The notes under the pieces were generated by a model. That model made no database searches, had not been told where the DNA came from, and worked only from the letters and a program-made list of their open reading frames with translations. From the NCBI RefSeq assembly GCF_024502345.1, contig NZ_JALDNN010000001.1: a stretch of DNA of 64,000 nt. The stretch is one strand, 5' to 3'. The translations under genes were made by a program, and so were the position numbers. This document shows positions 4,261 to 33,439 of the stretch, in pieces. The stretch comes from Escherichia coli. Lineage in GTDB: Bacteria; Pseudomonadota; Gammaproteobacteria; Enterobacterales; Enterobacteriaceae. Within the stretch, counting starts at the first letter, position 1, and every line of letters begins with the position of its first letter.

Positions 4261-4770
4261 TACGATTCGCCCGCAGCCATCACTGACTGCGGGCGAAAGT
4301 GTAAAGCAGGTGCCTTACCACTCTGACCTGACAACCGGATATGCGGGGATTGCTCCCCGCACAACGGCTACTTCTTCGGTTCGTAAGCGAGAACAGCCTT
4401 AAACTCAATATTACGTTCCTTTACGGTGAACTCACACAGCGAGTCTCCGACCAGAAGCGTAAATCCCAGCACCGTCAAACACAGCACTATGACTGCCACA
4501 AGGGCATATTTCGTCAGCATGTTTATATTGCCTCCATGCGAAGAAGGGACTACCATCCGAGTTGTTCAGGTTCGGAGTGGCAGCCCCAGGATTGATAGAA
4601 ATATCTCCTGGGGCTTCATCTTTCCAAACCTCAGAGTTAACCTGAAACCGGAAAGCTTCAGGCACCCGCCGTTATCTTACCCTTCCTTAGCAAAATAGCT
4701 GTTTATTTATACAGTGAATCCTGTTTCGGACTTCTGTCGGCAAAACTCATCATTGCTCTTAAAACGAAAC
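4261..4770 (-). other. Intact hok/sok-type type I toxin-antitoxin locus (copy A), tandem to the IS186-split copy
   Basis: ~510-bp unit with near-identical direct repeat starting again at 4772; contains hok ORF, overlapping upstream mok-like frame, and 3' region. Confidence 0.7.
4368..4520 (-). CDS. Hok-family membrane toxin (50 aa), copy A
   Basis: [50 protein letters not shown] within ORF 4368..4556. Confidence 0.85.
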
Positions 4771-4859
4771 CGCCCGCAGCCATCACTGACCGCGGGCGAA
4801 AGTGTAAAGCAGGTGCCTTACCATCCTGACCTGACAACCGGATATGCGGGGATTACTCC

Positions 4860-6198: not shown

Positions 6199-6219
6199 GG
6201 ATTACTCCCCGCACAACGG

Positions 6220-6372
6220 CTACTTCTTCGGTTCGTAAGCGAGAACAGCCCTGAACTCAATATTACGTTCCTTCACCGTAAACTCACACAGCGAGTCTCC
6301 GACCAGAAGCGTAAATCCCAGTACCGTCAAACACAGCACTATGACTGCCACAAGGGCATATTTCGTCAGCAT
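6220..6372 (-). CDS. hokE: Hok-family membrane toxin HokE (copy B, locus split by IS186 21 bp downstream of the stop)
   Basis: [50 protein letters not shown]; one aa difference (K/R) from copy A. Confidence 0.85.
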
Positions 6373-6812
6373 GTTTATATTGCCTCCATGCGAAGAAGGA
6401 ACTACCATCCAAATTGTCTGGTTTGGAGTGGCAGCCCCAGGGTTGATAGAAATATCTCCTGGGGCTTCATCTTTCCAGACCTCAGAGTAAACCTGAAACC
6501 GGAAAGCTTCAGGCACCCGCCGTTATCTTACCCTTCCTCAACAAAATAGCTGTTTATTTATACAGTAAATCCTGTTTCGGACTTCTCACTCCTCATTTAA
6601 TCAACTGAAGCTGAGCCCGTTTTTTCTGCATGCCTCAATCGTCAAAATTCTTCGCCACCAGCCAGCCGTGCCATAACTTGTCACATTGCAAAAGTAGCCA
6701 AATTGCTTCAGGCACCATCAGTTCACCATCACCAAAAAAAGAAACATTCCAGAACTTCCGCATCTCGCCCAGCCGCTCCGACTTCTATACTGAATAGAAA
6801 ACGCCAACATAA

Positions 6813-15400: not shown

Positions 15401-15628
15401 CACCGACAACATGGTGGTGGTTAGCGGATAAGTCACCTGATTTTCAACGATTTGCGGTGCCTGGCCGGGATAGCTGGTTTTAATAATCACCTGCACATCG
15501 GAGAGATCCGGCAGTGCATCCACTGGCGTGTTAATGATGGTCCAGGTGCCCCAGATACTTAGAAACAACGCGCCCATCAGCACCAAAAAACGGTTCGCCA
15601 CCGAGCGACGAATAATCCATTCAATCAT
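12485..15628 (-). CDS. cusA: Cu(I)/Ag(I) efflux RND transporter CusA
   Basis: 1047-aa [32 protein letters not shown]... Confidence 0.95.
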
Positions 15629-15639
15629 TGGTTATTCCC

Positions 15640-16863
15640 TCAATGCGCATGGGTAGCACTTTCAGAGCGCATCCGCTCCAGTGCGCCAGAAATATTGGCT
15701 TCGGAATCAATCAGGAACAGGCCGCTGGAAACCACCTTTTCACCTTCCGCCAGACCAGAGCGTAATGCGGTGATACCTTGCGATGCCTGGAAAACGGCAA
15801 CGCGTTTTGGTACAAAGCGCCCGTCGGCATCAACGGTAATCACCCGCTGTTCGCTGCCGGTATCAATCAGCGCTTGTGACGGAATGAGCAGCATCGGTTC
15901 GCTGGCGGTATTGAGTTGCAACCAGGCGTTCATTCCCGGTTTTAGCGCCTCGTCGGCGTTGTCGACTTCCAGACGCAGCTGCAGCGTGCGGGTCGCGGCA
16001 TCCACGCCAGGTAGTAGCGTCCATTTGCGGATGGTGAGTGTTTTATCAGGTCGCGCCGGAACGGTGAGCGTAAACTGCGAGGCATCTTTCACCAGCCAGG
16101 CGATAGACTCCGGGATCGCAGCAGTGACCCACACCGGGTCCATACCCTGAATTTTCGCTACCACGTTATCTTTGGCGATATTCATTCCCGCGCGCAGATC
16201 AAACGCGGTGATCACGCCATCAATGGGTGCTTTGAGCGTAAAGCGAGTCTGGATTTTTTGCGTGGCGATCAGGCGGCGAATATCCGCCTCCGGCATTCCC
16301 GCCAGTCGCAGCCGCTCAAGAATGCCTTCAGTCTGGGTCGCCGTACCGCCGGTTTCGCGCAGCAGTAAATACTCACTCTGCGCTTCCACCCAGTCGGGAA
16401 TGGTCAGGTCGAGAAGCGGTGTGCCCTTTTGCACTTTATCGCCCACGGTAAGCGGATACACCTTGTCGATAAACCCGGCAGCGCGAGCCTGCACAATGGC
16501 ATACTGATACTCGTTGTAACTGACATTCGCCGGGAAACTCTGGGCAAAAGTCAGCGGCCCGCGCGTGACGGTAGCCGTTTTCACCCCCAGATTCTGCGTC
16601 TGAGTCGGGTCAATGCGCACACCAGACGCAGAACTCTCTTCATCGGCATATTTCGGCACCAGATCCATATCCATAAACGGCGATTTACCTGGTTTATCGA
16701 ACCGCGTATTAGGATACATCGGGTCGTACCAGAATAAGATTTTACGTTCTGCGGTCGACGTTTTTTCTGCGGGTGGTTCAGCCTTTGCAAACCAGGTAAA
16801 ACCTGCCGCAGAAATAATACCGCCCGCGATCATGCTGCCGATAATAAGCGCGATTTTTTTCAT
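15640..16863 (-). CDS. cusB: Cu(I)/Ag(I) efflux membrane fusion protein CusB
   Basis: 407-aa ORF immediately upstream of cusA. Confidence 0.95.
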   Translation of the reverse strand: MKKIALIIGSMIAGGIISAAGFTWFAKAEPPAEKTSTAERKILFWYDPMYPNTRFDKPGKSPFMDMDLVPKYADEESSASGVRIDPTQTQNLGVKTATVTRGPLTFAQSFPANVSYNEYQYAIVQARAAGFIDKVYPLTVGDKVQKGTPLLDLTIPDWVEAQSEYLLLRETGGTATQTEGILERLRLAGMPEADIRRLIATQKIQTRFTLKAPIDGVITAFDLRAGMNIAKDNVVAKIQGMDPVWVTAAIPESIAWLVKDASQFTLTVPARPDKTLTIRKWTLLPGVDAATRTLQLRLEVDNADEALKPGMNAWLQLNTASEPMLLIPSQALIDTGSEQRVITVDADGRFVPKRVAVFQASQGITALRSGLAEGEKVVSSGLFLIDSEANISGALERMRSESATHAH

Positions 16864-16878
16864 CTCATTAAACCTGGG

Positions 16879-17211
16879 TTACTGGCTGACTTTAATATCC
16901 TGTAATAAAGAAAGGTTGCCCTGCTGGACAAAATTAAACGCCACTTTGTCGCCAGTTTTAATTTCACTCATTTTCGTCTGCGGAGTGATGGTAAAGCGCA
17001 TGGTCATCTCCGGCCAGTTCACGGCAGCAATCGGATCGTGATGGATGGTGATTTTTTTGCTTTCCAGATCAACACCTTTTACCACGCCGGTGGCACTAAT
17101 GACCTGTGGTTGTGCTTCGCTCATGGTTTCATGATGATGTTCGTTAGCCTGGGCATTAAAGCCAATAACGGTAAACAGACTGAACATTGCGACTTGCAGT
17201 GCTTTTTTCAT
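16879..17211 (-). CDS. cusF: Periplasmic copper/silver chaperone CusF
   Basis: 110-aa ORF with signal peptide, MKKALQVAMFSLFTVIGFNAQA... Confidence 0.95.
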   Translation of the reverse strand: MKKALQVAMFSLFTVIGFNAQANEHHHETMSEAQPQVISATGVVKGVDLESKKITIHHDPIAAVNWPEMTMRFTITPQTKMSEIKTGDKVAFNFVQQGNLSLLQDIKVSQ

Positions 17212-17234
17212 TTATTCTCTCCTGGAGTTAAAAG

Positions 17235-18617
17235 TTATTGCTGCCAACCGCCACCAAGTGCGGTATATAAAGAAATTTCGTTAACCTGACGGGCATAATT
17301 CAGGTTAAGTAAAGTTTGTCGGGTTGCAAATAACGAACGCTCGGCATCCAGCACTTCCAGATAACTTACTGCTCCGTGCTGATATAATGCCCGCGCCCGT
17401 TGCAAAGTAATTTGCAGCGATGCCAGATAACGCTGCTGGGCGCTAATTTGATCGTTCAGGCTTTGACGTAATGCCAGCGCATCTGCCACTTCTTTAAAGG
17501 CGTTCTGGATTTTCTGTTCATAATTCACCACCGACTGCTGCTGGCGAATTTCGGCGATATCCAGATTGACCTGGTTGCGTCCGGCATTAAAAATGGGGAT
17601 CTCAATTTTAGGAATAAAATTCCACATCCCGCTGCTGGCGTTAAATAATGACGACAGATCGCTGCTGGCGGTTGATATTCCGCTGGTCAGGCTTATAGAT
17701 GGGAAAAATGCCGCGCGTGCAGCGCCAATATTGGCATTAGCCGCCATTAACGCGTGTTCAGCTTCCATAATATCCGGGCGCTGCAATAAGATTTGCGACG
17801 ACAAGCCCGCCGGTAATTTAACGCTTTGCAGACTGCCGCCGTTTACTGTCTGCGCTTGCGGCAGCTTGCCGTAGCTTCCCAATAACAGTTGCAATGCATT
17901 ATTCGCCTGCGCCAGTTCCCCCTGACGTTTAGCGATGTCGCTGCGGGTACTTTCAATCACCCCGCGAGCCTGTTCCAGCGCCAGAACATTACTGCTACCT
18001 GTCAACAGTTGTTTTTCGACAAACGCATATGACTGCTGATAATTACGCAGCGTTTCTTCGGCTATTTGCAATTGCGCATACGCCAGCTGCTGATTGAAAT
18101 AGCTTTGCGCGACATTAGAAACCAGCAGAATATGCACCGCGCGCTGAGCTTCCTCAGTGGCTAAATAATTTTGTCGCTCGGCTTCGCTCATGTTCTTTAA
18201 GCGCCCGAAAAAATCGAGGTCAAAGCTGGCGTTAAGGCCAGTAGAAAACTCCCGCGTCGTGGCTGAATCGCCTTTAAGATTGCCGCTCCAGCTGCCGCTG
18301 CCCTCACCATTGAGCTGTGGGTAGCGGTCGGCATCAGTCAGACGATATTGCGCCCGTGCCTCCTGCACTTTCAGCGTCTCCATGCGCAAATCCCGGTTAT
18401 TCTCCAGCGCCTCGCTAATCAGCGTCTTCACCTGATTATCAACAAAAAAGGTGCGCCAGCCCGCGTTCTGATAGTTATCTGCTGCGTTAACGAGGCCGTT
18501 CTGGCTGAGTGAGAACTGCTGAGGAACGGGCATTGCCGGACGCTGATAATCCGGTGCCAGTGAACAACCGGTTAGCGCAAGGGCCACACAAAATGGCAGA
18601 AGTTTACAAGGAGACAT
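17235..18617 (-). CDS. cusC: Cu(I)/Ag(I) efflux outer membrane factor CusC (lipoprotein)
   Basis: MSPCKLLPFCVALALTGCSLAPDYQRP... lipobox LTGC. Confidence 0.95.
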   Translation of the reverse strand: MSPCKLLPFCVALALTGCSLAPDYQRPAMPVPQQFSLSQNGLVNAADNYQNAGWRTFFVDNQVKTLISEALENNRDLRMETLKVQEARAQYRLTDADRYPQLNGEGSGSWSGNLKGDSATTREFSTGLNASFDLDFFGRLKNMSEAERQNYLATEEAQRAVHILLVSNVAQSYFNQQLAYAQLQIAEETLRNYQQSYAFVEKQLLTGSSNVLALEQARGVIESTRSDIAKRQGELAQANNALQLLLGSYGKLPQAQTVNGGSLQSVKLPAGLSSQILLQRPDIMEAEHALMAANANIGAARAAFFPSISLTSGISTASSDLSSLFNASSGMWNFIPKIEIPIFNAGRNQVNLDIAEIRQQQSVVNYEQKIQNAFKEVADALALRQSLNDQISAQQRYLASLQITLQRARALYQHGAVSYLEVLDAERSLFATRQTLLNLNYARQVNEISLYTALGGGWQQ

Positions 18618-18686
18618 AGGCTCATAATTTCTGGTGATTTTATGCCGCCAACTTTACTCGCCAGGCTCTGATTTTCCGGTGACAGG

Positions 18687-18708
18687 AAAATGACAAAATT
18701 GTCATTTT
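18687..18708. promoter_or_regulatory. CusR-binding palindrome in the cusC-cusR divergent promoter
   Basis: Perfect inverted repeat aaaatgacaaaattgtcatttt. Confidence 0.75.
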
Positions 18709-18773
18709 ACCAATAAGCGATTGCCATCTGATCCCGCTACTCTAGAATTGCCCGGGCAACATGCGGAGGAAAT

Positions 18774-19457
18774 ATGAAACTGTTGATTGTCGAAGATGAA
18801 AAGAAAACCGGAGAATACTTGACCAAAGGGTTAACCGAAGCCGGTTTTGTGGTCGATTTGGCCGACAACGGGCTGAATGGCTACCATCTGGCGATGACCG
18901 GTGATTATGATCTGATAATCCTCGATATTATGCTGCCGGACGTGAACGGCTGGGATATCGTGCACATGTTGCGCTCCGCCAATAAAGGGATGCCGATTCT
19001 GTTGCTTACCGCGCTTGGCACCATTGAACATCGCGTCAAGGGGCTGGAGTTGGGGGCAGATGACTACCTGGTGAAACCATTCGCTTTTGCTGAACTACTG
19101 GCGCGGGTGCGCACTCTCCTGCGGCGCGGGGCGGCGGTGATTATCGAAAGTCAGTTTCAGGTTGCCGATCTGATGGTCGATCTCGTCAGCCGCAAAGTCA
19201 CCCGCAGCGGCACGCGCATCACTTTGACCAGTAAAGAGTTTACTCTGCTGGAGTTTTTTCTCCGCCATCAGGGCGAAGTGCTGCCCCGCTCGCTTATCGC
19301 CTCGCAGGTATGGGACATGAATTTTGACAGCGATACCAATGCTATTGATGTGGCGGTGAAGCGGCTGCGCGGCAAAATCGACAACGACTTTGAGCCGAAG
19401 CTGATTCAAACCGTGCGCGGCGTGGGCTACATGCTTGAGGTGCCGGATGGTCAGTAA
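18774..19457 (+). CDS. cusR: Copper-responsive two-component response regulator CusR (OmpR family)
   Basis: 227-aa [23 protein letters not shown]... Confidence 0.95.
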
Positions 19458-20889
19458 ACCATTTCAGCGTCCGTTTTCGCTGGCAACCCGCCTGACCTTT
19501 TTTATCAGCCTGGCCACCATCGCGGCGTTTTTCGCCTTTGCATGGATCATGATCCACTCAGTAAAAGTGCATTTTGCCGAGCAGGATATTAATGATTTAA
19601 AAGAGATTAGCGCCACCCTTGAACGGGTACTAAATCACCCTGACGAAACGCAAGCCCGACGCTTAATGACGCTGGAAGATATCGTCAGTGGTTATTCCAA
19701 CGTGTTGATTTCCCTGGCAGATAGTCAGGGTAAAACGGTGTATCACTCCCCCGGTGCGCCGGATATCCGCGAGTTTACGCGTGACGCCATACCCGATAAA
19801 GACGCTCAGGGTGGCGAGGTGTATCTCCTTTCCGGCCCGACGATGATGATGCCAGGCCACGGTCACGGGCATAGGGAACACAGCAACTGGCGGATGATTA
19901 ACTTGCCGGTTGGCCCGTTGGTGGACGGCAAACCGATTTATACGCTCTACATCGCGCTTTCGATCGATTTTCATCTTCATTACATAAATGATTTGATGAA
20001 TAAACTTATTATGACCGCATCGGTAATCAGCATCCTGATCGTCTTTATCGTACTGTTGGCGGTACATAAAGGTCACGCGCCGATCCGCAGCGTCAGCCGT
20101 CAAATCCAGAATATTACCTCGAAAGATCTCGACGTTCGCCTCGACCCGCAGACCGTGCCCATTGAGCTGGAACAGCTGGTACTGTCGTTCAACCATATGA
20201 TCGAGCGTATTGAGGATGTCTTTACCCGCCAGTCCAATTTCTCAGCGGATATCGCCCACGAAATTCGCACGCCGATTACCAATCTCATCACGCAAACGGA
20301 AATCGCCCTCAGCCAGTCGCGCAGCCAGAAGGAGCTGGAAGATGTGCTCTACTCTAATCTCGAAGAGCTGACGCGAATGGCGAAAATGGTCAGCGATATG
20401 CTGTTTCTCGCTCAGGCCGATAACAACCAGCTAATCCCCGAAAAGAAAATGCTCAACCTGGCGGATGAAGTCGGCAAAGTGTTCGATTTTTTCGAGGCTT
20501 TAGCGGAAGATCGCGGCGTGGAGTTGCGATTTGTTGGCGACGAATGTCAGGTTGCGGGCGATCCGCTGATGCTGCGTCGGGCGTTAAGCAACCTGCTTTC
20601 TAATGCCCTGCGTTATACGCCACCCGGAGAGGCAATTGTAGTGCGCTGCCAGACGGTCGATCATCAGGTGCAAGTTATCGTCGAAAACCCCGGTACTCCC
20701 ATTGCGCCCGAGCACTTACCGCGATTGTTTGACCGTTTCTACCGCGTTGACCCCTCCCGCCAACGAAAAGGCGAAGGTAGCGGCATTGGGCTGGCGATAG
20801 TGAAATCGATTGTTGTCGCGCATAAAGGCTCGGTTGCGGTAACGTCAGATGCCCGGGGGACAAGGTTTGTTATCACATTACCCGCTTAA
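19447..20889 (+). CDS. cusS: Copper-sensing histidine kinase CusS
   Basis: ORF 19435..20889; start at [12 protein letters not shown] (480 aa), overlaps cusR stop. Confidence 0.93.
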
Positions 20890-21113
20890 TCCTTCAGCAA
20901 ACGGCAACTTTTATAACCAGTGTAAAAATAACGTGCCGCAATAGTCATACCTATTAATGGTAAAAAGCTGTCACAATTCATAAAAAACCTTAATATACGC
21001 CACCCTAAACATAACCAGCGTTAATGTAAGGTTTTTGTGTGGACTGGCTTCTTGATGTTTTTGCTACCTAGCTCTATGGCTTAAAAGTAATCGCGATAAC
21101 GTTAGCGGTCATC

Positions 21114-23276
21114 ATGTTCATCAGCGGGCTGGACGATTTTTTTATTGATGTCGTCTACTGGGTACGCCGCATTAAACGCAAGTTGAGTGTTTATCGCCGC
21201 TACCCGCGAATGAGTTACCGCGAACTGTATAAACCAGATGAAAAACCGTTAGCGATTATGGTTCCGGCGTGGAATGAAACGGGCGTCATCGGCAATATGG
21301 CCGAGCTGGCGGCGACCACGCTCGACTACGAAAACTATCATATCTTTGTTGGCACCTACCCCAACGACCCCGATACTCAGCGTGATGTTGACGAAGTGTG
21401 CGCTCGCTTTCCGAACGTGCATAAGGTAGTCTGCGCGCGTCCTGGCCCCACCAGCAAAGCCGACTGTCTGAACAACGTGCTGGACGCCATCACCCAGTTT
21501 GAGCGTAGCGCCAATTTCGCTTTTGCTGGTTTTATTCTGCATGACGCCGAAGATGTGATTTCACCGATGGAATTGCGTCTGTTCAACTATCTGGTCGAGC
21601 GTAAAGATCTGATTCAGATCCCGGTGTATCCGTTCGAACGCGAATGGACGCACTTCACCAGCATGACTTACATTGATGAGTTTTCAGAACTGCATGGCAA
21701 AGATGTTCCGGTGCGTGAAGCCCTCGCCGGACAAGTGCCCAGCGCAGGCGTCGGCACCTGTTTCAGCCGCCGCGCCGTGACCGCACTGTTAGCTGACGGT
21801 GACGGTATTGCTTTCGACGTGCAGAGTCTTACTGAAGATTACGACATTGGCTTCCGCCTGAAAGAAAAAGGTATGACGGAAATTTTTGTCCGTTTTCCGG
21901 TGGTGGACGAAGCCAAAGAACGCGAGCAGCGTAAATTTTTACAGCACGCACGGACATCAAACATGATCTGCGTGCGCGAATATTTCCCCGATACCTTTTC
22001 GACTGCGGTTCGACAAAAATCCCGCTGGATCATCGGCATTGTTTTCCAGGGCTTTAAAACCCATAAATGGACCTCCAGCCTGACGCTGAACTACTTTCTC
22101 TGGCGCGACCGCAAAGGGGCAATCAGTAACTTTGTCAGCTTCCTCGCGATGCTGGTGATGATCCAGCTTTTGCTGTTGCTGGCGTATGAAAGTTTGTGGC
22201 CCGATGCCTGGCATTTCCTTTCTATTTTCAGCGGCAGCGCATGGTTAATGACCCTGCTGTGGCTAAACTTTGGTTTGATGGTTAACCGCATCGTGCAGCG
22301 GGTGATTTTCGTTACTGGCTACTACGGCCTGACGCAGGGGCTGCTTTCCGTCCTGCGTCTTTTCTGGGGCAACCTGATTAACTTCATGGCCAACTGGCGC
22401 GCGCTAAAACAGGTACTCCAACACGGCGATCCACGTCGCGTCGCGTGGGATAAAACAACGCATGACTTCCCCAGCGTGACTGGCGATACCCGCTCGTTGC
22501 GCCCGTTAGGCCAAATTCTGCTGGAAAATCAGGTCATCACTGAAGAACAACTCGATACAGCACTGCGTAATCGCGTCGAAGGTCTACGCCTGGGCGGTTC
22601 AATGCTGATGCAGGGGCTGATTAGCGCCGAGCAGCTGGCACAGGCGCTGGCAGAGCAAAACGGCGTGGCGTGGGAATCCATCGATGCCTGGCAGATCCCT
22701 TCCTCGCTGATTGCCGAAATGCCGGCCTCCGTGGCGCTGCATTATGCGGTACTGCCGCTGCGTCTGGAAAATGATGAGTTAATTGTCGGCAGTGAAGATG
22801 GTATTGACCCAGTTTCGCTGGCGGCCCTGACGCGTAAAGTCGGACGCAAAGTGCGTTACGTCATTGTTCTGCGGGGACAAATTGTCACGGGGTTACGTCA
22901 CTGGTATGCACGCCGACGCGGTCACGATCCGCGGGCAATGTTGTACAATGCGGTTCAGCATCAGTGGCTCACGGAACAGCAGACCGGTGAAATCTGGCGG
23001 CAATATGTGCCGCATCAGTTCCTGTTCGCCGAAATACTGACCACGCTCGGTCATATTAATCGTTCAGCAATTAACGTGTTGTTATTGCGCCATGAACGCA
23101 GTTCTCTGCCGCTCGGCAAGTTTTTGGTCACCGAAGGTGTTATCAGCCAGGAAACGTTGGATCGCGTCCTGACAATTCAACGCGAATTACAAGTTTCGAT
23201 GCAATCACTATTACTCAAAGCAGGTTTAAACACAGAACAGGTTGCGCAACTGGAGTCCGAAAATGAAGGAGAATAA
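21114..23276 (+). CDS. nfrB: Phage N4 adsorption protein B (inner-membrane glycosyltransferase family 2); N-terminal extension interrupted by in-frame TAG
   Basis: 720-aa ORF MFISGLDDFFIDVVYWVRR...; in-frame upstream GTG(21039) DWLLDVFAT-TAG(21069)-LYGLKVIAITLAVI precedes the ATG. Confidence 0.85.
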   Translation: MFISGLDDFFIDVVYWVRRIKRKLSVYRRYPRMSYRELYKPDEKPLAIMVPAWNETGVIGNMAELAATTLDYENYHIFVGTYPNDPDTQRDVDEVCARFPNVHKVVCARPGPTSKADCLNNVLDAITQFERSANFAFAGFILHDAEDVISPMELRLFNYLVERKDLIQIPVYPFEREWTHFTSMTYIDEFSELHGKDVPVREALAGQVPSAGVGTCFSRRAVTALLADGDGIAFDVQSLTEDYDIGFRLKEKGMTEIFVRFPVVDEAKEREQRKFLQHARTSNMICVREYFPDTFSTAVRQKSRWIIGIVFQGFKTHKWTSSLTLNYFLWRDRKGAISNFVSFLAMLVMIQLLLLLAYESLWPDAWHFLSIFSGSAWLMTLLWLNFGLMVNRIVQRVIFVTGYYGLTQGLLSVLRLFWGNLINFMANWRALKQVLQHGDPRRVAWDKTTHDFPSVTGDTRSLRPLGQILLENQVITEEQLDTALRNRVEGLRLGGSMLMQGLISAEQLAQALAEQNGVAWESIDAWQIPSSLIAEMPASVALHYAVLPLRLENDELIVGSEDGIDPVSLAALTRKVGRKVRYVIVLRGQIVTGLRHWYARRRGHDPRAMLYNAVQHQWLTEQQTGEIWRQYVPHQFLFAEILTTLGHINRSAINVLLLRHERSSLPLGKFLVTEGVISQETLDRVLTIQRELQVSMQSLLLKAGLNTEQVAQLESENEGE

Positions 23277-26235
23277 CCTTAATCGCGTCATCGGATGGTC
23301 TGGTTTACTGCTGACGTCTTTATTGAGTACCAGCGCACTCGCAGACAATATCGGCACCAGCGCAGAAGAGCTGGGGCTGAGCGATTATCGCCATTTTGTT
23401 ATTTATCCCCGTCTCGATAAGGCGCTGAAGGCACAGAAAAATAACGACGAAGCAACCGCCATCCGCGAATTTGAATATATACACCAGCAGGTGCCGGATA
23501 ATATTCCGCTGACTTTATACCTTGCGGAAGCCTATCGCCATTTTGGTCATGATGACCGGGCGCGGCTGTTGCTTGAGGATCAACTGAAACGTCACCCAGG
23601 AGATGCCCGACTTGAGCGCAGTCTGGCGGCTATTCCGGTTGAAGTGAAAAGCGTTACAACTGTTGAAGAACTGCTTGCCCAGCAAAAAGCGTGCGATGCT
23701 GCGCCGACCCTGCGTTGTCGCAGTGAAGTCGGGCAGAATGCCCTGCGGCTTGCACAGTTACCTGTCGCCAGAGCGCAACTGAACGATGCGACGTTTGCTG
23801 CATCGCCGGAAGGAAAAACGCTGCGAACCGATCTGCTGCAACGGGCAATCTACCTGAAACAATGGTCCCAGGCAGATACGCTATACAATGAAGCACGCCA
23901 GCAGAACACATTAAGCGCGGCAGAACGCCGTCAGTGGTTTGACGTGCTTCTTGCCGGGCAGCTGGACGATCGGATCCTGGCACTGCAATCACAGGGGATC
24001 TTCACCGATCCTCAGTCATATATTACTTACGCGACCGCGCTGGCTTATCGTGGCGAAAAAGCACGCCTCCAGCATTATCTCATTGAAAATAAGCCGCTGT
24101 TTACCACGGACGCACAAGAGAAAAGTTGGCTCTATCTGTTATCTAAATACAGCGCCAACCCCGTTCAGGCATTGGCGAATTATACGGTGCAGTTTGCCGA
24201 TAACCGCCAGTATGTTGTTGGCGCGACGCTACCGGTGCTGTTAAAAGAAGGTCAGTACGACGCAGCGCAAAAACTGCTCGCCACCCTCCCCGCCAATGAA
24301 ATGCTTGAGGAGCGTTATGCTGTCAGCGTGGCGACCCGTAACAAGGCTGAAGCTCTGCGTCTGGCACGATTGCTGTATCAGCAAGAACCGGCAAATCTTA
24401 CCCGCCTGGATCAACTGACCTGGCAACTGATGCAGAACGAGCAGTCACGCGAAGCTGCCGATTTATTGCTGCAACGCTATCCTTTCCAGGGCGATGCGCG
24501 TGTCAGCCAGACTTTAATGGCGCGACTGGCGTCTCTGCTGGAAAGTCATCCTTACCTGGCAACGCCGGCGAAGGTGGCGATTTTATCGAAACCCTTACCG
24601 CTGGCGGAGCAACGTCAGTGGCAAAGTCAGTTGCCGGGTATTGCAGATAATTGCCCGGCAATAGTTCGCTTGCTGGGCGATATGTCGCCTTCCTACGATG
24701 CTGCCGCCTGGAACCGTCTGGCAAAGTGTTATCGGGACACGCTACCCGGTGTGGCGCTGTATGCATGGCTTCAGGCCGAACAACGACAACCGAACGCCTG
24801 GCAACATCGTGCGGTAGCCTATCAGGCGTATCAGGTTGAGGACTACGCCACCGCACTGGCGGCCTGGCAGAAAATCAGTCTTCACGACATGAGCAATGAG
24901 GATCTGCTTGCTGCTGCCAATACCGCCCAGGCGGCAGGAAATGGTGCAGCTCGCGATCGCTGGCTACAACAGGCAGAACAACGTGGACTGGGAAACAATG
25001 CCCTCTACTGGTGGCTGCATGCGCAACGTTACATTCCTGGTCAGCCGGAACTCGCACTGAGCGATCTCACGCGCTCAATCAATATTGCGCCTTCTGCCAA
25101 CGCTTACGTTGCGCGGGCGACAATTTATCGCCAACGTCATAATGTCCCGGCGGCGGTGAGTGATTTGCGCGCCGCGCTGGAACTGGAACCGAATAATAGC
25201 AACATCCAGGCAGCGCTTGGTTACGCCTTGTGGGATAGCGGTGATATCGCACAGTCGCGGGAAATGCTCGAACAGGCGCATAAAGGGCTACCGGACGATC
25301 CGGCACTGATCCGACAACTGGCCTATGTGAACCAGCGTCTGGATGACATGCCTGCGACGCAGCACTACGCCCGGCTGGTGATTGATGACATTGATAATCA
25401 GGCGCTGATAACCCCACTGACCCCAGAGCAAAATCAGCAACGCTTCAATTTCCGCCGTTTGCATGAGGAGGTCGGTCGCCGCTGGACGTTCAGTTTCGAT
25501 TCTTCCATCGGCTTGCGTTCCGGCGCAATGAGTACCGCTAACAATAATGTCGGCGGCGCAGCGCCAGGGAAAAGCTATCGTAGCTACGGACAACTGGAAG
25601 CCGAGTACCGCATCGGACGCAATATGCTGCTGGAAGGCGACCTGCTCTCAGTTTATAGCCGCGTCTTTGCCGATACCGGAGAAAACGGGGTGATGATGCC
25701 GGTGAAAAATCCGATGTCCGGCACCGGTCTGCGCTGGAAGCCGCTGCGCGATCAGATCTTTTTCCTCGCCGTCGAACAGCAGTTGCCGCTGAACGGGCAA
25801 AATGGCGCATCCGATACCATGCTGCGCGCCAGCGCCTCATTCTTTAATGGCGGCAAATACAGCGACGAATGGCACCCGAACGGTTCAGGCTGGTTTGCCC
25901 AAAACCTGTACCTCGATGCGGCGCAATATATCCGCCAGGATATTCAGGCGTGGACGGCAGATTATCGCGTCAGCTGGCATCTGAAGGTAGCTAACGGACA
26001 GACTATTGAGCCTTACGCTCACGTTCAGGACAACGGCTATCGTGATAAAGGCACTCAGGGCGCGCAGCTTGGCGGAGTCGGGGTCCGCTGGAATATCTGG
26101 ACCGGCGAGACGCACTACGACGCCTGGCCGCACAAAGTCAGTCTCGGCGTCGAGTATCAACATACCTTTAAGGCGATTAATCAACGTAACGGAGAGCGCA
26201 ACAACGCGTTTCTCACCATTGGAGTGCACTGGTAA
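23263..26235 (+). CDS. nfrA: Phage N4 adsorption outer membrane protein NfrA
   Basis: ORF 23242..26235; start at MKENNLNRVIGWSGLLLTSLLSTSALA (990 aa). Confidence 0.92.
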   Translation: MKENNLNRVIGWSGLLLTSLLSTSALADNIGTSAEELGLSDYRHFVIYPRLDKALKAQKNNDEATAIREFEYIHQQVPDNIPLTLYLAEAYRHFGHDDRARLLLEDQLKRHPGDARLERSLAAIPVEVKSVTTVEELLAQQKACDAAPTLRCRSEVGQNALRLAQLPVARAQLNDATFAASPEGKTLRTDLLQRAIYLKQWSQADTLYNEARQQNTLSAAERRQWFDVLLAGQLDDRILALQSQGIFTDPQSYITYATALAYRGEKARLQHYLIENKPLFTTDAQEKSWLYLLSKYSANPVQALANYTVQFADNRQYVVGATLPVLLKEGQYDAAQKLLATLPANEMLEERYAVSVATRNKAEALRLARLLYQQEPANLTRLDQLTWQLMQNEQSREAADLLLQRYPFQGDARVSQTLMARLASLLESHPYLATPAKVAILSKPLPLAEQRQWQSQLPGIADNCPAIVRLLGDMSPSYDAAAWNRLAKCYRDTLPGVALYAWLQAEQRQPNAWQHRAVAYQAYQVEDYATALAAWQKISLHDMSNEDLLAAANTAQAAGNGAARDRWLQQAEQRGLGNNALYWWLHAQRYIPGQPELALSDLTRSINIAPSANAYVARATIYRQRHNVPAAVSDLRAALELEPNNSNIQAALGYALWDSGDIAQSREMLEQAHKGLPDDPALIRQLAYVNQRLDDMPATQHYARLVIDDIDNQALITPLTPEQNQQRFNFRRLHEEVGRRWTFSFDSSIGLRSGAMSTANNNVGGAAPGKSYRSYGQLEAEYRIGRNMLLEGDLLSVYSRVFADTGENGVMMPVKNPMSGTGLRWKPLRDQIFFLAVEQQLPLNGQNGASDTMLRASASFFNGGKYSDEWHPNGSGWFAQNLYLDAAQYIRQDIQAWTADYRVSWHLKVANGQTIEPYAHVQDNGYRDKGTQGAQLGGVGVRWNIWTGETHYDAWPHKVSLGVEYQHTFKAINQRNGERNNAFLTIGVHW

Positions 26236-27126
26236 ATGCGTAAGTTCATTTTCGTATTGCTGACACTGCTTTTGGTCAGCCCTTTTTCCTTTGCGATGAA
26301 AGGTATTATCTGGCAACCACAAAACCGTGATAGTCAGGTTACCGATACCCAGTGGCAGGGGCTGATGAGTCAGTTACGTTTGCAAGGCTTCGATACCTTG
26401 GTTTTGCAATGGACCCGTTACGGCGATGCATTCACCCAGCCAGAACAGCGCGCGTTATTGTTTAAGCGTGCCGCAGCTGCGCAACAGGCTGGCCTGAAGC
26501 TGATTGTCGGGCTGAACGCCGATCCGGAATTTTTTATGCACCAGAAACAGTCGTCCGCAGCGCTGGAAAGCTATCTTAATCGCCTGCTGGCTGCCGATCT
26601 CCAGCAAGCCAGATTATGGAGCGCCGCGCCTGGCATAACGCCGGATGGCTGGTACATCAGCGCGGAAATTGACGACCTGAACTGGCGCAGCGAAGCTGCC
26701 CGTCAGCCTTTGCTAACATGGTTAAACAACGCGCAGCGGCTGATTAGCGATGTTTCAGCAAAACCGGTTTATATCAGTAGTTTTTTCGCCGGAAACATGT
26801 CGCCCGATGGCTATCGCCAACTGCTGGAACACGTTAAAGCAACCGGCGTTAATGTTTGGGTACAGGATGGCAGCGGCGTGGATAAACTGACCGCTGAACA
26901 GCGTGAACGTTATCTACAGGCCAGCGCCGATTGCCAAAGTTCCGCCCCAGCAAGCGGCATTGTTTATGAACTGTTTGTCGCCGGCAAAGGCAAAACCTTT
27001 ACAGCGAAACCGAAACCGGACGCAGAAATTGCCTCGCTGTTAGCGAAACGTTCCTCTTGCGGTAAAGACACGCTCTATTTCTCTCTGCGCTATTTGCCCG
27101 TCGCGCACGGCATTCTCGAGTATTAA
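26236..27126 (+). CDS. ybcH: Uncharacterised secreted protein YbcH
   Basis: 296-aa ORF with signal peptide MRKFIFVLLTLLLVSPFSFA. Confidence 0.85.
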   Translation: MRKFIFVLLTLLLVSPFSFAMKGIIWQPQNRDSQVTDTQWQGLMSQLRLQGFDTLVLQWTRYGDAFTQPEQRALLFKRAAAAQQAGLKLIVGLNADPEFFMHQKQSSAALESYLNRLLAADLQQARLWSAAPGITPDGWYISAEIDDLNWRSEAARQPLLTWLNNAQRLISDVSAKPVYISSFFAGNMSPDGYRQLLEHVKATGVNVWVQDGSGVDKLTAEQRERYLQASADCQSSAPASGIVYELFVAGKGKTFTAKPKPDAEIASLLAKRSSCGKDTLYFSLRYLPVAHGILEY

Positions 27127-27308
27127 ATCTCCTCCAGGTAAGTCGGGTACGACCTGGCTTACCTCTTTCGCTCTCGTCAGAATTCCATCAAGATTAATTG
27201 CTAAAAAGCATGCTAAAGAAAGAAGATCGTTATCGGCGAACGGGCCGATCACTCATGCAGGAAGCATAGATCCTTTGAGCGGAGTTTCTGATATCTGAGG
27301 AGTGCGAA

Positions 27309-28070
27309 ATGCAATTGAGCAGCAGTGAACCTTGCGTGGTGATCCTGACCGAAAAAGAGGTAGAGGTAAGCGTCAATAACCATGCTACGTTTACCCTTCC
27401 GAAAAACTACCTGGCCGCCTTCGCGTGCAACAATAACGTCATTGAACTCTCAACGTTAAATCACGTATTAATCACCCACATCAACCGTAACATCATCAAC
27501 GATTATCTGTTGTTTTTAAATAAGAACTTAACCTGTGTAAAGCCCTGGTCGCGGCTGGCTACCCCGGTTATCGCTTGTCATAGCCGTACACCGGAAGTGT
27601 TCCGGCTAGCCGCCAACCACAGCAAGCAGCAACCCAGCAAACCCTGCGAAGCGGAGTTGACGCGCGCATTGCTTTTTACCGTATTGTCTAACTTTCTTGA
27701 GCAATCGCGGTTTATTGCCCTACTGATGTATATCTTACGCAGCAGCGTCCGCGACAGCGTCTGCCGCATTATTCAAAGCGATATTCAGCACTACTGGAAT
27801 CTGCGAATTGTCGCCAGTTCGCTATGTTTAAGCCCCAGCCTGCTCAAAAAGAAATTAAAAAACGAAAATACCAGCTATAGCCAGATTGTCACAGAGTGTC
27901 GTATGCGTTACGCCGTACAGATGTTATTGATGGATAACAAAAATATCACTCAGGTGGCGCAATTATGTGGCTATAGCAGCACGTCGTACTTTATCTCTGT
28001 TTTTAAGGCGTTTTACGGCCTGACACCGTTGAATTATCTCGCCAAACAGCGACAAAAAGTGATGTGGTGA
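27309..28070 (+). CDS. envY: AraC-family transcriptional regulator EnvY
   Basis: 253-aa ORF with C-terminal AraC-type HTH. Confidence 0.88.
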   Translation: MQLSSSEPCVVILTEKEVEVSVNNHATFTLPKNYLAAFACNNNVIELSTLNHVLITHINRNIINDYLLFLNKNLTCVKPWSRLATPVIACHSRTPEVFRLAANHSKQQPSKPCEAELTRALLFTVLSNFLEQSRFIALLMYILRSSVRDSVCRIIQSDIQHYWNLRIVASSLCLSPSLLKKKLKNENTSYSQIVTECRMRYAVQMLLMDNKNITQVAQLCGYSSTSYFISVFKAFYGLTPLNYLAKQRQKVMW

Positions 28071-28114
28071 AGAGCAAAGCGGAACGGATAAGACGGGGTT
28101 AAATGAAGAAGAAA

Positions 28115-28159
28115 TGGCGCGCCCTGCAGGATTCGAACCTGCGGCCCACGACTTAGAAG
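28115..28159 (-). repeat. Prophage att repeat: 45-bp copy of the 3' end of tRNA-Arg (argU)
   Basis: tggcgcgccctgcaggattcgaacctgcggcccacgacttagaag is identical to the 3' 45 nt of the complete tRNA at 36672-36748. Confidence 0.85.
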
Positions 28160-28581
28160 TTCCTAGAACGACATTTTAAGTCAACAAATTACCGCGCCAT
28201 CTCTGCGCTCATACGTCCCACTACCTCAAAACATGTAAAGCCTTGCAAGCCATTGTGAGGCCTTATGTGTCTCAGTTTTGTCCCTCTTTTTTGTACTAAA
28301 AAACATAGCAATTGAGGATAAACCTCATGCTATTTTCGCTTATATGCCTTTAAAGGCATGGCGCTTAAATAGATAAAAACACCACAAAATCATAAAAAAC
28401 CACACAGTAAAACCGCAACATAAAACAATAACAGATAATTAAACCAAAAACAGATAGCGCATTGTGATAATCATTCAATACTAAACAAAATATAAACAGT
28501 GGAGCAATATGTGATTGACTCATTAAGTTAGATATAAAAAATACATATTCAATCATTAAAACGATTGAATGGAGAACTTTT

Positions 28582-28832
28582 ATGCGGGCGAAACTTCTGG
28601 GAATAGTTCTGACAACCCCTATTGCGATCAGCTCTTTTGCTTCTACCGAGACTATATCGTTTACTCCTGACAACATAAATGCGGACATTAGTCTTGGAAC
28701 TCTGAGCGGAAAAACAAAAGAGCGCGTTTATCTAGCTGAAGAAGGAGGCCGAAAAGTCAGTCAACTCGACTGGAAATTCAATAACGCTGCAATTATTAAA
28801 GGTGCAATTAATTGGGATTTGATGCCCCAGAT
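28582..28832 (+). pseudogene. ompT: ompT 5' fragment (outer membrane protease VII), truncated after ~83 codons by IS903-like element
   Basis: MRAKLLGIVLTTPIAISSFASTETISFTPDNINADISLGTLSGKTKERVYLAEEGGRKVSQLDWKFNNAAIIKGAINWDLMPQ then IS inverted repeat at 28833. Confidence 0.85.
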
Positions 28833-29889
28833 GGCTTTGTTGAATAAATCGAACTTTTGCTGAGTTGAAGGATCAGATCACGTATCTTCCCGACAACGCA
28901 GACCGTTCCGTGGCAAAGCAAAAGTTCAAAATCACCAACTGGCCCACCTACAATAAAGCCCTCATCAACCGTGGCTCCATAACTTTCTGGCTGGATGATG
29001 AAGCTATTCAGGCCTGGTATGAGTCAGCAACACCTTCTTCACGAGGCAGACCTCAGCGCTATTCTGACCTTGCCATCACGACTGTGCTGGTCATTAAACG
29101 CGTATTCAGGCTGACCCTGCGCGCTGCGCAGGGCTTTATTGATTCCATTTTTTCTCTGATGAACGTTCCGCTACGCTGCCCGGATTACAGCTGTGTCAGC
29201 AGGCGGGCAAAGTCGGTTAATGTCAGTTTCAAAACGCCCACCCGGGGTGAAATCGCACACCTGGTAATTGATTCCACCGGGCTGAAGGTCTTCGGTGAAG
29301 GCGAGTGGAAAGTCAAAAAGCATGGCCAGGAACGCCGCCGTATCTGGCGTAAGCTGCATCTCGCCGTTGACAGTAAAACACATGAAATCATCTGCGCTGA
29401 CCTGTCGCTGAACAACGTTACGGACTCAGAGGCCTTCCCCGGGTTAATCCGGCAAACCCACCGGAAAATCAGGTCAGCCGCCGCCGATGGCGCTTACGAT
29501 ACCCGGCTATGTCACGATGAACTGCGGCGTAAGAAAATCAGCGCGCTTATCCCTCCCCGAAAAGGTGCGGGTTACTGGCCCGGTGAATATGCAGACCGTA
29601 ACCGTGCAGTGGCTAATCAGCGAATGACCGGGAGTAATGCGCGGTGGAAATGGACAACAGATTACAACCGTCGCTCGATAGCGGAAACGGCGATGTACCG
29701 GGTAAAACAGCTGTTCGGGGGTTCACTGACACTGCGTGACTACGATGGTCAGGTTGCAGAGGCTATGGCCCTGGTACGAGCGCTGAACAAAATGACGAAA
29801 GCAGGTATGCCTGAAAGCGTGCGTATTGCCTGAAAACACAACCCGCTACGGGGGAGACTTACCCGAAATCTGATTTATTCAACAAAGCC
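28833..29889 (+). mobile_element. IS903-like insertion sequence (IS5 family), copy 1, no target-site duplication
   Basis: 1057 bp; terminal inverted repeats ggctttgttgaataaatcg / cgatttattcaacaaagcc; flanks gccccagat vs tcgctgaaa differ. Confidence 0.85.
28865..29833 (+). CDS. IS903-family transposase
   Basis: 322-aa ORF ...[39 protein letters not shown]...; identical to the copy at 56939..57907. Confidence 0.85.
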
Positions 29890-30078
29890 TCGCTGAAAGT
29901 GGAATGTATCCATGGAGAACACTTTATCAGCCGGGAAATAATGCGGGCAACGGTGTTTAATTATATCGAATGTGATTACAATCGGTGGCGGCGGCACAGT
30001 TGGTGTGGCGGCCTCAGTCCGGAACAATTTGAAAACCAGAACCTCGCTTAGGCCTGTGTCCATATTACGTGGGTAGGA
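29890..30078 (+). mobile_element. IS3 right-end remnant (3' end of orfB plus terminal inverted repeat)
   Basis: Encodes [53 protein letters not shown]; ends ...cctgtgtccatattacgtgggtaggatca. Confidence 0.75.
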
Positions 30079-30331
30079 TCACACCTTCTTCCACACTTTC
30101 TGGAACATTTAGGTAACAACCATCTGGATATTGGTGTTGGAACTGGGTTTTACCTTACTCACGTACCTGAGAGTAGTCTGATATCTTTAATGGATTTGAA
30201 CGAAGCTAGCCTGAACGCGGCATCTACAAGGGCTGGGGAATCAAAAATTAAACATAAAATTAACCATTGATGTAGCCCCCTGAAACACCGGACAGTAGCT
30301 GTATCTCCAGATAAGAGATAGGCTTGAATAT

Positions 30332-30727
30332 ATGTCTAACACTAACGCCAATTTTGAGATGACCGGGATCCTGTTAGGGCAAGAAGTCCGTAAACGTAAA
30401 ACTCCTCAGGAGAAGATCGCCATTATCCAGCAGACGATGGAGCCGGGTATGAATGTCTCCCATGTCGCCCGCCTGCATGGTATCCAGCCCAGCCTGCTGT
30501 TTAAGTGGAAGAAGCAATATCAGGAAGGCAGCCTCACCGCCGTTGCGGCTGGAGAGGAAGTCGTTCCTGCTTCTGAGCTTACTGCTGCTCTGAAGCAGGT
30601 CCGGGAGCTTCAGCGCCTTCTGGGCAAGAAAACGATGGAAGTTGAGATCCTGAAAGAAGCCGTGGAGTACGGTCAGTCGCGAAAATGGATAGCGCACGCG
30701 CCCTTGTTGCCAAAGGACGGGGAATAG
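30332..30727 (+). CDS. IS3-family transposase OrfA (HTH)
   Basis: 131 aa, ...[60 protein letters not shown]... similar to IS2 InsC. Confidence 0.8.
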
Positions 30728-31566
30728 CCATGGTCAGCCGGACCATGGGCGTGTCGCGTGCGCAACTGTCACTGCGGATTAACCGTTCTGCCGACTGGCA
30801 GGACAGGCGCTGTAACCGGCGTAATGAAGAAGCAGACGCAGAAATACTGTCGGCTATCCTCAACATTATCAGCGATATGCCGAGTTATGGTTATCGACGC
30901 GTGTGGGGCATCCTGCGCAAGCAACGTCGCACAGAGGGACAGCCACCTGTGAATGCCAAACGGCTTTACAGGATAATGAGCGAGCATAACCTGTTGTTGT
31001 TGCATCACAAACCAGAGCGACCGAAGCGTGAACATAAGGGCAAGATAGCGGTGGCAGAAAGCGATATGCGCTGGTGTTCAGATGGCTTCGAGTTCGGCTG
31101 CGACAACGGCGAAAAACTGCGGGTAACGTTCGCGCTGGACTGCTGCGACCGTGAGGCCATAGACTGGGCAGCAAGCACGGGAGGCTATGACAGTTCGACC
31201 GTGCAGGATGTGATGCTGAGGTCGGTGGAAAAGCGCTTCGGCGACAGGTTGCCCGACACAGCGGTGCAGTGGCTGACGGATAACGGTTCAGCGTATACCG
31301 CGTATGAAACGCGGAGGTTCGCGAGAGAGCTGAATCTGGAGCCCTGCACAACAGCGGTGAGCAGCCCGCAGAGTAATGGCATGGCCGAACGGTTCGTGAA
31401 AACGATGAAAGAAGACTATATCGCGTTCATGCCAAAACCGGATGTGAGAACAGCACTGCGAAACCTTGCAGTAGCGTTCACGCATTACAATGAAAACCAC
31501 CCGCACAGCGCGCTGGGATATCACTCCCCGAGGGAATACCGGCGGCAGCGGACATCGTTAACTTAA
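30685..31566 (+). CDS. IS3-family transposase OrfB (DDE catalytic domain)
   Basis: 293 aa overlapping orfA in another frame; ...[17 protein letters not shown]... Confidence 0.8.
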
Positions 31567-31615
31567 GATACAAAAGCTGTTCGGAGATGGAGGGTCAAGA
31601 TCACATAAAATTAAC

Positions 31616-31972
31616 CATGATGTTTTTGAACCTTATCCCGCGGCGTTACATGGTCAATTTGATTCCATTTCCATGTTTTACCTTCTTCACTGCCTGCCTG
31701 GAAATATATCTACAAAAAGCTGTGTAATACGCAATGCGGCGCAGGCCTTAACTGACGATGGAACTCTATACGGAGCCACAATTCTTGGCGATGGAGTTGT
31801 GCACAATAGCTTCGGTCAAAAACTGATGCGCATTTACAATCAGAAAGGCATCTTTTCAAACACAAAAGATTCCGAAGAAGGCTTAACACATATACTCTCA
31901 GAGCATTTCGAGAATGTTAAAACCAAGGTTCAAGGTACTGTAGTAATGTTTTCCGCTTCAGGGAAAAAATAG
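31616..31972 (+). CDS. Hypothetical protein, apparently 5'-truncated gene remnant
   Basis: Open frame begins immediately after the IS2-like flank with no start until 31673; followed by hairpin terminator at ~31980-32017. Confidence 0.3.
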   Translation, partial: HDVFEPYPAALHGQFDSISMFYLLHCLPGNISTKSCVIRNAAQALTDDGTLYGATILGDGVVHNSFGQKLMRIYNQKGIFSNTKDSEEGLTHILSEHFENVKTKVQGTVVMFSASGKK

Positions 31973-32281
31973 CATCCAACCGCAGCACGTTCTTGCATAA
32001 GGCGTGTCTGCGGTTTTTCAACTATTCAGATACATCACTCCCATCACATTCATTCCTCCGCATCATAGGCATATAGGCTATATCACCTTGATATTTTTCT
32101 TCTTCAGATAAAAACTGTTATCTATGTATACTTTTAAACCCAATCCGTGTAGAGTCTCTGCATAAGATAGTTTGCAGTTGCCACTTCAGCTTGCGCCATA
32201 AACCGCCTGATTTTTGCCGCCACCTGGGTGATGCTGCCAACTTACTGATTTAGTGTATGATGGTGTTTTTGAGGTGCTCCA

Positions 32282-32557
32282 GTGGCTTCTGTTTCTATCA
32301 GCTGTCCCTCCTGTTCAGCTACTGACGGGGTGGTGCGTAACGGCAAAAGCACCGCCGGACATCAGCGCTATCTCTGCTCTCACTGCCGTAAAACATGGCA
32401 ACTGCAGTTCACTTACACCGCTTCTCAACCCGGTACGCACCAGAAAATCATTGATATGGCCATGAATGGCGTTGGATGCCGGGCAACCGCCCGCATTATG
32501 GGCGTTGGCCTCAACACGATTTTCCGCCATTTAAAAAACTCAGGCCGCAGTCGGTAA
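32282..32557 (+). CDS. insA: IS1 InsA
   Basis: 91 aa [43 protein letters not shown]... Confidence 0.9.
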
Positions 32558-32979
32558 CCTCGCGCATACAGCCGGGCAGTGACGTCATCGTCTGCGCGGA
32601 AATGGACGAACAGTGGGGATACGTCGGGGCTAAATCGCGCCAGCGCTGGCTGTTTTACGCGTATGACAGGCTCCGGAAGACGGTTGTTGCGCACGTATTC
32701 GGTGAACGCACTATGGCGACGCTGGGGCGTCTTATGAGCCTGCTGTCACCCTTTGACGTGGTGATATGGATGACGGATGGCTGGCCGCTGTATGAATCCC
32801 GCCTGAAGGGAAAGCTGCACGTAATCAGCAAGCGATATACGCAGCGAATTGAGCGGCATAACCTGAATCTGAGGCAGCACCTGGCACGGCTGGGACGGAA
32901 GTCGCTGTCGTTCTCAAAATCGGTGGAGCTGCATGACAAAGTCATCGGGCATTATCTGAACATAAAACACTATCAATAA
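32476..32979 (+). CDS. insB: IS1 InsB (expressed as InsAB' by frameshift)
   Basis: 167-aa ORF in -1 frame relative to insA. Confidence 0.85.
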
Positions 32980-33439
32980 GTTGGAGTCATTACCTAAGTC
33001 AGGTATAAATATAAGTGACATTGCCCAAGAATTCAAAACCTCGCGGCAAACCATTTTAAGAGCTAAAGCAAAAAATCAGACACCTGATATATAAAAATAA
33101 TCTCGGTGTGAGATTCCTTACGTTTTCCAAGCCCCCCTTCCTAGCCTTAAATGGAAAGATACTTCTAATTATAGAATTTATATATCTTACCCTACGGTAG
33201 GGCTGGCCATTCAATATCCGGTGCAGTTGATGTATCAACACGGTTCAGCAACACCCGATACTTTTTCCAGGCTTCCAGCAACAAGGTTTCTTCCTCCGTT
33301 GCGATCTCCAGATCCACAGCATCCTGAAGCGGCGCTATATGCTCACTGGCTACCTGCATCAGGCTGTTTTTTGTTTCTTCCGCCTACCTGTAATACTGAT
33401 TGCGAGTTGAATGGTTTGATTTGTCATTATCAATTCCTA

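Follow-up and report, generated by a model that had tools for sequence, protein, structure and literature searches.

In the 64-kb window analysed here (the whole stretch of 64,000 nucleotides from an Escherichia coli contig), ompT is broken after nucleotide 251 and runs into a complete IS903B element whose other end abuts the 3' part of an IS3, and we consider it highly probable that this structure is a real IS903B-associated deletion that nullified the ompT locus, irrespective of the route by which it arose. The window covers the E. coli cus-nfrBA-ybcH-envY / argU-fimZ-folD neighbourhood, in which two 47-bp repeats bound an 8.6-kb DLP12-type prophage remnant with ompT as the first gene inside. 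The partner repeat (36670-36716) overlaps argU, a tRNA-Arg(TCT) gene at 36672-36748 on the minus strand, and the prophage integrase is reduced to a C-terminal ORF of 92 aa. The setting is a cryptic DLP12-type prophage at argU, and the deletion itself is recent. The features around the break, together with a second IS903B copy, are the following:

28113-28159, no strand assigned: 47-bp repeat of the argU 3' end (attR-like), 100% identical to 36670-36716 (self-BLAST)
28582-28832, plus strand: ompT 5' remnant, nt 1-251 (codons 1-83 plus 2 nt)
28833-29889, plus strand: IS903B copy 1, complete (1,057 bp), transposase ORF intact, no target-site duplication
29890-30081, plus strand: IS3 3' fragment, IS3 nt 1067-1258, 192/192 aligned at 99.5% identity
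30082-30267, plus strand: class I SAM-dependent methyltransferase gene, nt 130-315, adjoining the IS3 end
30268-31603, plus strand: ISEcl1-like IS (IS3 family, IS2 group), 1,336 bp, inside the methyltransferase gene
31604-31972, plus strand: methyltransferase gene 3' part, nt 301-669
32227-32994, plus strand: IS1 copy without target duplication, replacing the ynaM-ydfK-pin segment seen in contigs L020 and L003
56883-57939, minus strand: IS903B copy 2, a simple insertion in allB with the 9-bp duplication CCATGCCCG

The ompT remnant and the junctions of IS903B

From the ompT start codon at 28582 to the last ompT base at 28832, the sequence is the same as that of the reference gene (...ATGCCCCAGAT), after which it continues as GGCTTTGTTGAATAAATCG, the IS903 terminal repeat. 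The remnant comprises the 20-residue signal peptide and 63 mature residues, is identical to same-clone relatives over OmpT residues 1-83, and reads through into the element as a 93-aa fusion ORF (28582-28863). It is matched by the Pfam Omptin model (PF01278, E 2.4e-22) at model positions 1-60 of 283 only. About 80% of the OmpT barrel is lost, including all four catalytic residues (D83, D85, D210 and H212 in mature numbering), which lie downstream of the break at mature residue 63; because these residues are absent from the remnant, the locus is null. The remnant is a pseudogene without a complete beta-barrel, and the locus is incapable of producing OmpT. The earlier sequence-only reading, which placed the cut at codon ~84 after about 60 mature residues, was essentially right, and its description of the strain as OmpT-protease negative holds for this locus, where the catalytic residues are gone, but not as a strain-wide claim, the window being 64 kb only. 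No second ompT-like sequence was detected in these 64 kb by tblastn; in some E. coli, OmpP and the plasmid-encoded ArlC (arlC/ompTp) are active omptins (PMC6854850).

The element at the break has the hallmarks of IS903 (IS5 family), with a length of ~1,057 bp, 18-bp terminal inverted repeats and a DDE transposase, and is 98.7% identical to an element annotated as IS903B. Both terminal repeats (GGCTTTGTTGAATAAATC) are present, and the transposase ORF (28865-29833) is intact (IS5-family model NF033579, E 6e-107). The 9-bp duplication expected of a simple insertion is absent, the left flank being GCCCCAGAT and the right flank TCGCTGAAA, which bears out the earlier observation that ompT runs straight into an IS903-like element with no target duplication. 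Copy 2, which is 100% identical to copy 1 over 1,057 bp in inverted orientation (self-BLAST), served as an internal control for a normal IS903 insertion: its flanks (56874-56882 and 57940-57948) form a perfect 9-bp duplication. The mismatched flanks of copy 1, set against the duplication at copy 2, indicate that copy 1 was rearranged rather than simply inserted, and a decayed 9-bp duplication at copy 1 is already excluded. Copy 2 breaks allB (allantoinase) at about codon 55 (...LVVSPGM / IS / GMVDAHTH...), an interruption that should abolish allantoin degradation.

The identity and inverted orientation of the two copies would also suit an inversion or exchange between them as the source of the mismatched flanks. 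The chance of this is practically nil, given that copy 2 retains its perfect duplication and interrupts allB co-linearly, that reference genomes share the folD-to-allB gene order as a single 18.4-kb piece, and that the missing interval is absent from the window rather than relocated within it (tblastn). Copy 2 was rejected as a rearrangement partner on account of its intact duplication.

On the other side of copy 1, the IS3 fragment covers the final 53 codons of orfB with their stop codon, plus the right terminal repeat, and no further IS3 sequence occurs in the 64-kb window. Thus far the sequence-only reading had correctly recognised an IS3 end with its terminal repeat, with the corrections that it spans 53 codons rather than 52 and ends at 30081 rather than 30078. 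It had missed that the IS3 sits inside the methyltransferase gene of the same prophage remnant, a gene which in other E. coli lies downstream of ompT. The bases CACC at 30082-30085, directly after the IS3 end, form the right-hand copy of the target duplication made by IS3, and the first 9 bp of the fragment (29890-29898) are the sequence that simple IS903 insertions at this IS3 site duplicate.

The ompT break thus belongs to a cluster of five IS-derived segments within 4.2 kb. The ISEcl1-like element duplicated 15 bp, CATAAAATTAACCAT (30253-30267 and 31604-31618), and target duplications of 15-16 bp accompany five of six independent copies of this element (the copies in the window, L012, L047, L048 and L049 among them). 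Target duplications in the IS3 family are usually 3-5 bp, so that 15-16 bp is much longer. The IS1 copy at 32227-32994 is 100% identical to another at 37666-38433, likewise without duplication, which lies between fimZ (36928-37623) and folD (38601-39467) and replaces the whole sfm fimbrial operon. Elsewhere in the window, the hokE/entD region contains 390-bp direct repeats (4346-4735 and 6198-6586, 95% identical) with an IS4-family (IS186/IS421-like) transposase gene between them (5031-6149), as well as a 90-bp repeat (4268-4357 and 4771-4860).

The undeleted state in the same clone and the reality of the structure

The exact sequence of the window's NfrA protein was looked up in public assemblies. 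Two of the resulting contigs, L032 (GCA_036619395.1) and L033 (ERZ1755925), are 99.98-99.99% identical to window positions 13263-28832, with 2-3 mismatches in 15.57 kb. Past ompT nt 251, both continue through an intact ompT (317 aa), a gene for a 494-aa alpha/beta-hydrolase, a tail-fibre-assembly remnant and methyltransferase nt 1-133 into the left end of an IS3 (...GGAACACC / TGATCTTACC...); the contigs of intact-ompT relatives end at IS3 nt 390-462. When combined, the left IS3 junction of L033 (...GGAACACC / TGATC) and the right junction of the window (GGATCA / CACCTTC) restore a 4-bp duplication, CACC, indicating that relatives and window carry one and the same IS3 insertion. When the window is compared with these sisters, the stretch corresponding to L033 15571-18622 (3,052 bp) is missing, as is IS3 nt 1-1066 (1,066 bp); the gap thus begins at ompT nt 252 and ends at IS3 nt 1066, and a single complete IS903B joins its two break points. 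Besides the rest of ompT, the deletion removed the hydrolase gene and the 5' part of a methyltransferase gene that was already dead.

Among contigs that share this NfrA allele, most of the 23 longest have an intact ompT, and L034 (GCA_050022275.1) carries the deletion allele, with one mismatch in 15.6 kb relative to the window. The existence of near-identical relatives with and without the deletion indicates that it is a recent polymorphism inside one clone, which the sequence-only reading did not see. That reading had proposed that a deletion associated with an IS, and not a simple insertion, had occurred, and had suggested a comparison with intact ompT loci; the comparison with L032 and L033, identical to the window up to the break points and retaining the interval, shows such a deletion directly.

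The ompT/IS903 junction was found in 9 independent contigs from NCBI and ENA assemblies, GCA_050022275.1 among them, and the IS3/methyltransferase junction in a JGI metagenome contig (OGCV01002408.1, L020), there without the later ISEcl1 and IS1 events. None of the 5,426 complete RefSeq E. coli genomes contains the ompT/IS903 junction, and the same count of zero was obtained in that collection for the IS3/methyltransferase and the ISEcl1/methyltransferase junctions; among the matches listed for the IS1/folD-side junction, none covers it as one piece, all being in two pieces. The best backbone identity to this collection is ~98.5%, indicating that the lineage of the window is not represented in it. 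The IS903/IS3 junction occurs among the complete RefSeq E. coli genomes only on plasmid NZ_CP145709.1, which is likewise the only record with it in PLSDB. Exact-protein look-ups in public assemblies gave no match for the minus-strand ORF across IS903/IS3, for the predicted methyltransferase'-IS3 fusion with either of two alternative starts, or for the truncated AllB; a 143-aa methyltransferase product was returned, and gene callers also call it at intact loci. A search of the literature on ompT and IS903 retrieved no description of this allele.

Could the structure be an assembly artefact, in which ompT and IS3 each contain an IS903B, the 4-kb interval still separates them, and the assembler merged the two copies into one? 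Formally this might happen, given the perfect identity of the two IS903B copies that the window contains, and in this lineage the IS903/IS3 joint has no independent confirmation, its sole trace elsewhere being a single base, T, that follows IS903 in the metagenome contig L004. Yet the window crosses seven IS-derived segments, including identical pairs of IS1 and of IS903B, with correct flanks throughout, and copy 2 keeps its duplication, as is typical of a long-read or finished assembly. Furthermore, nine independent contigs carry the ompT/IS903 junction, and no IS903/ompT-nt-243 junction was found for the 217-aa ompT 3' product (10 places returned, 24 longest contigs). A weaker point is that the base after IS903 in L004 is the T of IS3 and not the G expected for a simple insertion in ompT. 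We therefore regard a collapse as extremely unlikely and treat the deletion as real.

Contig L004 (ERZ19692831 k141_15271) aligns with window positions 22583-28832 and has the identical ompT/IS903 junction, with 0 differences over 28100-28832 and 28 differences spread across 22811-28099 (nfrB-envY). This pattern possibly reflects a chimeric metagenome assembly or a deletion-bearing prophage segment in a second backbone.

Many E. coli have no prophage at argU altogether, and it was mainly prophage-free strains that a look-up of the YbcH allele retrieved, with no intermediate among them. One metagenome contig of the same backbone, L031 (ERZ917174), has 3 mismatches in 14.9 kb of shared sequence and no prophage at argU, with envY adjoining argU-fimZ; either precise loss of the remnant between the 47-bp repeats still happens, or the backbone has recombined. 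In the same contig the sfm operon is intact (15847-21759), which indicates that the sfm loss is another recent IS-linked deletion in the clone.

Possible routes to the deletion

The relatives preserve the ancestral order envY - attR - ompT (intact) - alpha/beta-hydrolase (494 aa) - tail-fibre-assembly remnant - methyltransferase::IS3. From this state, a normal IS903B insertion at one of the two break points would have been the first step. In the second, one end of the element may have attacked the second break point by intramolecular transposition, as in a classical IS903 'adjacent deletion', or, alternatively, homologous recombination may have taken place with a second, directly oriented IS903B located there. 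By either route a single IS copy would remain between co-linear flanks, with no target duplication, and the predicted end product is the same for both, as it is for either break point being used first. Junction and exact-protein look-ups found no intermediate between the intact and the deleted states.

Adjacent deletion and recombination between IS copies are both recognised causes of missing duplications (PMC11708052), and that source, citing Weinert et al. 1983, states that adjacent deletions are common with IS903 and often account for a missing duplication. The window resembles the IS903 adjacent deletions attributed there to Weinert, Schaus and Grindley (1983; PMC11708052) in that one IS is kept, with one flank original and one new, and further in that the flanks are co-linear, the interval between them is missing and there is no 9-bp duplication. 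It differs from that system in that the product equals that of two-copy recombination and that one break point lies within an IS3 at a hot spot for IS903. Our assessment is that an intramolecular adjacent deletion is the probable route, and recombination between two IS903B copies a rather unlikely one.

The IS3 side of the junction coincides with a recurrent IS903 target. Plasmid NZ_CP145709.1 (pAA-type) carries IS903 in IS3 at the same site and in the same orientation with a full 9-bp duplication, TCGCTGAAA, and contig L037 also has IS903 at this site with a full duplication. The predicted fusion protein of such an insertion, OrfB(1-238)+GFVE, was found in 14 contigs and in many contexts. Insertions at IS3 nt 1067-1075 occur in both orientations, involve IS903 variants of 94-100% identity and one 94%-divergent IS3 relative, and span at least six genomic contexts (L007 4004-5060; L037, L038, L039, L040, L042, L045 and L046). 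This recurrence, with varied orientations and variants, marks IS3 nt 1067-1075 as an IS903 hot spot, a property that the sequence-only reading had missed at the IS903/IS3 joint. The hot spot lies within the palindrome CTTTCA-N5-TGAAAG; IS903 is said to prefer palindromic targets, a preference reportedly described by Hu and Derbyshire in 1998, and the hot-spot palindrome fits.

The finding of simple IS903 insertions there in many genomes gives us a mild preference for IS3 nt 1067-1075, rather than ompT, as the site of the first insertion. The hot-spot character also makes the reverse order plausible, with IS903B in ompT first and its right end attacking the hot spot 4 kb away, and it removes what would have been a strong argument for IS903 in IS3 first. 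Accordingly graded, an adjacent deletion that started from the IS3 side is a tentative proposition, and one that started from the ompT side is unlikely.

Other routes, whether a one-step capture at a break or an artefact, are together distinctly improbable. In the one-step scenario, a double-strand break or a deletion junction would have taken up IS903B outside the usual transposition chemistry. A proposed precedent is an IS5 (IS903 subgroup) element associated with a 62-kb deletion in E. coli C, with no duplication, and some IS-plus-deletion events have been argued not to be classical adjacent deletions (PMC11708052). In the window, however, the right junction matches to the base the 9-bp target of bona fide simple IS903 insertions, a coincidence that a transposase choosing its target would produce but a random break would not, which makes one-step capture very improbable.

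Comparison with other ompT lesions and significance

Inactivation of ompT by IS903B is also seen in pig E. coli NT1N25/NT1W25 (NZ_CP075484.1). There, in contrast, the element is a simple insertion at ompT nt ~760 with a 9-bp duplication, ATTCTGTTG, and both gene halves are kept; it is an independent event without deletion. Chromosomal ompT of the DLP12 region is lost in BL21(DE3) as well, but in that strain the whole nfrB-nfrA-ybcH-envY-ompT block is absent and prophage tail-fibre remnants adjoin cusS; nfrB, nfrA, ybcH and envY are all absent from the 50-kb stretch examined (NC_012971.2 535001-585000). The window has these four genes intact, its loss being confined to 4 kb within the prophage. 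The comparison with protein-expression hosts drawn in the sequence-only reading is accordingly an analogy only, and an E. coli B/BL21 origin of the lesion was rejected because the window keeps nfrB-envY.

Shigella/EIEC strains reportedly lack the whole DLP12 prophage, and Nakata et al. are said to have treated the absence of ompT in these strains, in 1993, as a 'black hole' or antivirulence locus. The window is similar in that OmpT was lost in a region with IS-driven gene loss (sfm operon, allB), and different in that the att repeats and other prophage remnants persist and that the window contains no sign of an invasive pathotype.

Other ompT 5' lesions are present in many unrelated E. coli assemblies (contigs L050-L059), where the gene has suffered frameshifts, an internal duplication, a deletion that reaches nt 34 or, at nt 150, the insertion of an IS5. 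A 217-aa product of the ompT 3' remnant appears in 240 blocks of the collection, indicating that ompT decay is widespread. Loss of ompT function is thus a common event, brought about here by a textbook mechanism; the allele itself is new.

A more far-reaching interpretation is that the loss of ompT was adaptive, with an IS-expanding clone shedding surface functions in parallel and the deletion allele possibly having moved between backgrounds. Contig L004, in which an identical attR-ompT'-IS903 segment stands beside a backbone differing by 0.5%, would be in keeping with such movement. If this interpretation were true, OmpT, Sfm fimbriae and allantoin use would have been lost together, much as in early Shigella/EIEC-like reductive evolution. 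We hold it to be highly doubtful. The ompT deletion is an ordinary, frequent kind of gene loss and opens no new question.

Isolates with the deletion allele should lack chromosomal OmpT activity, and OmpT loss affects the cleavage of cationic antimicrobial peptides as well as protein stability in lysates. The allele would also defeat PCR typing that uses ompT as a marker. The locus also offers a well-documented case in which IS elements inserted into one another and a deletion linked to an IS came afterwards, the 'before' and 'after' states both being captured in one clone.
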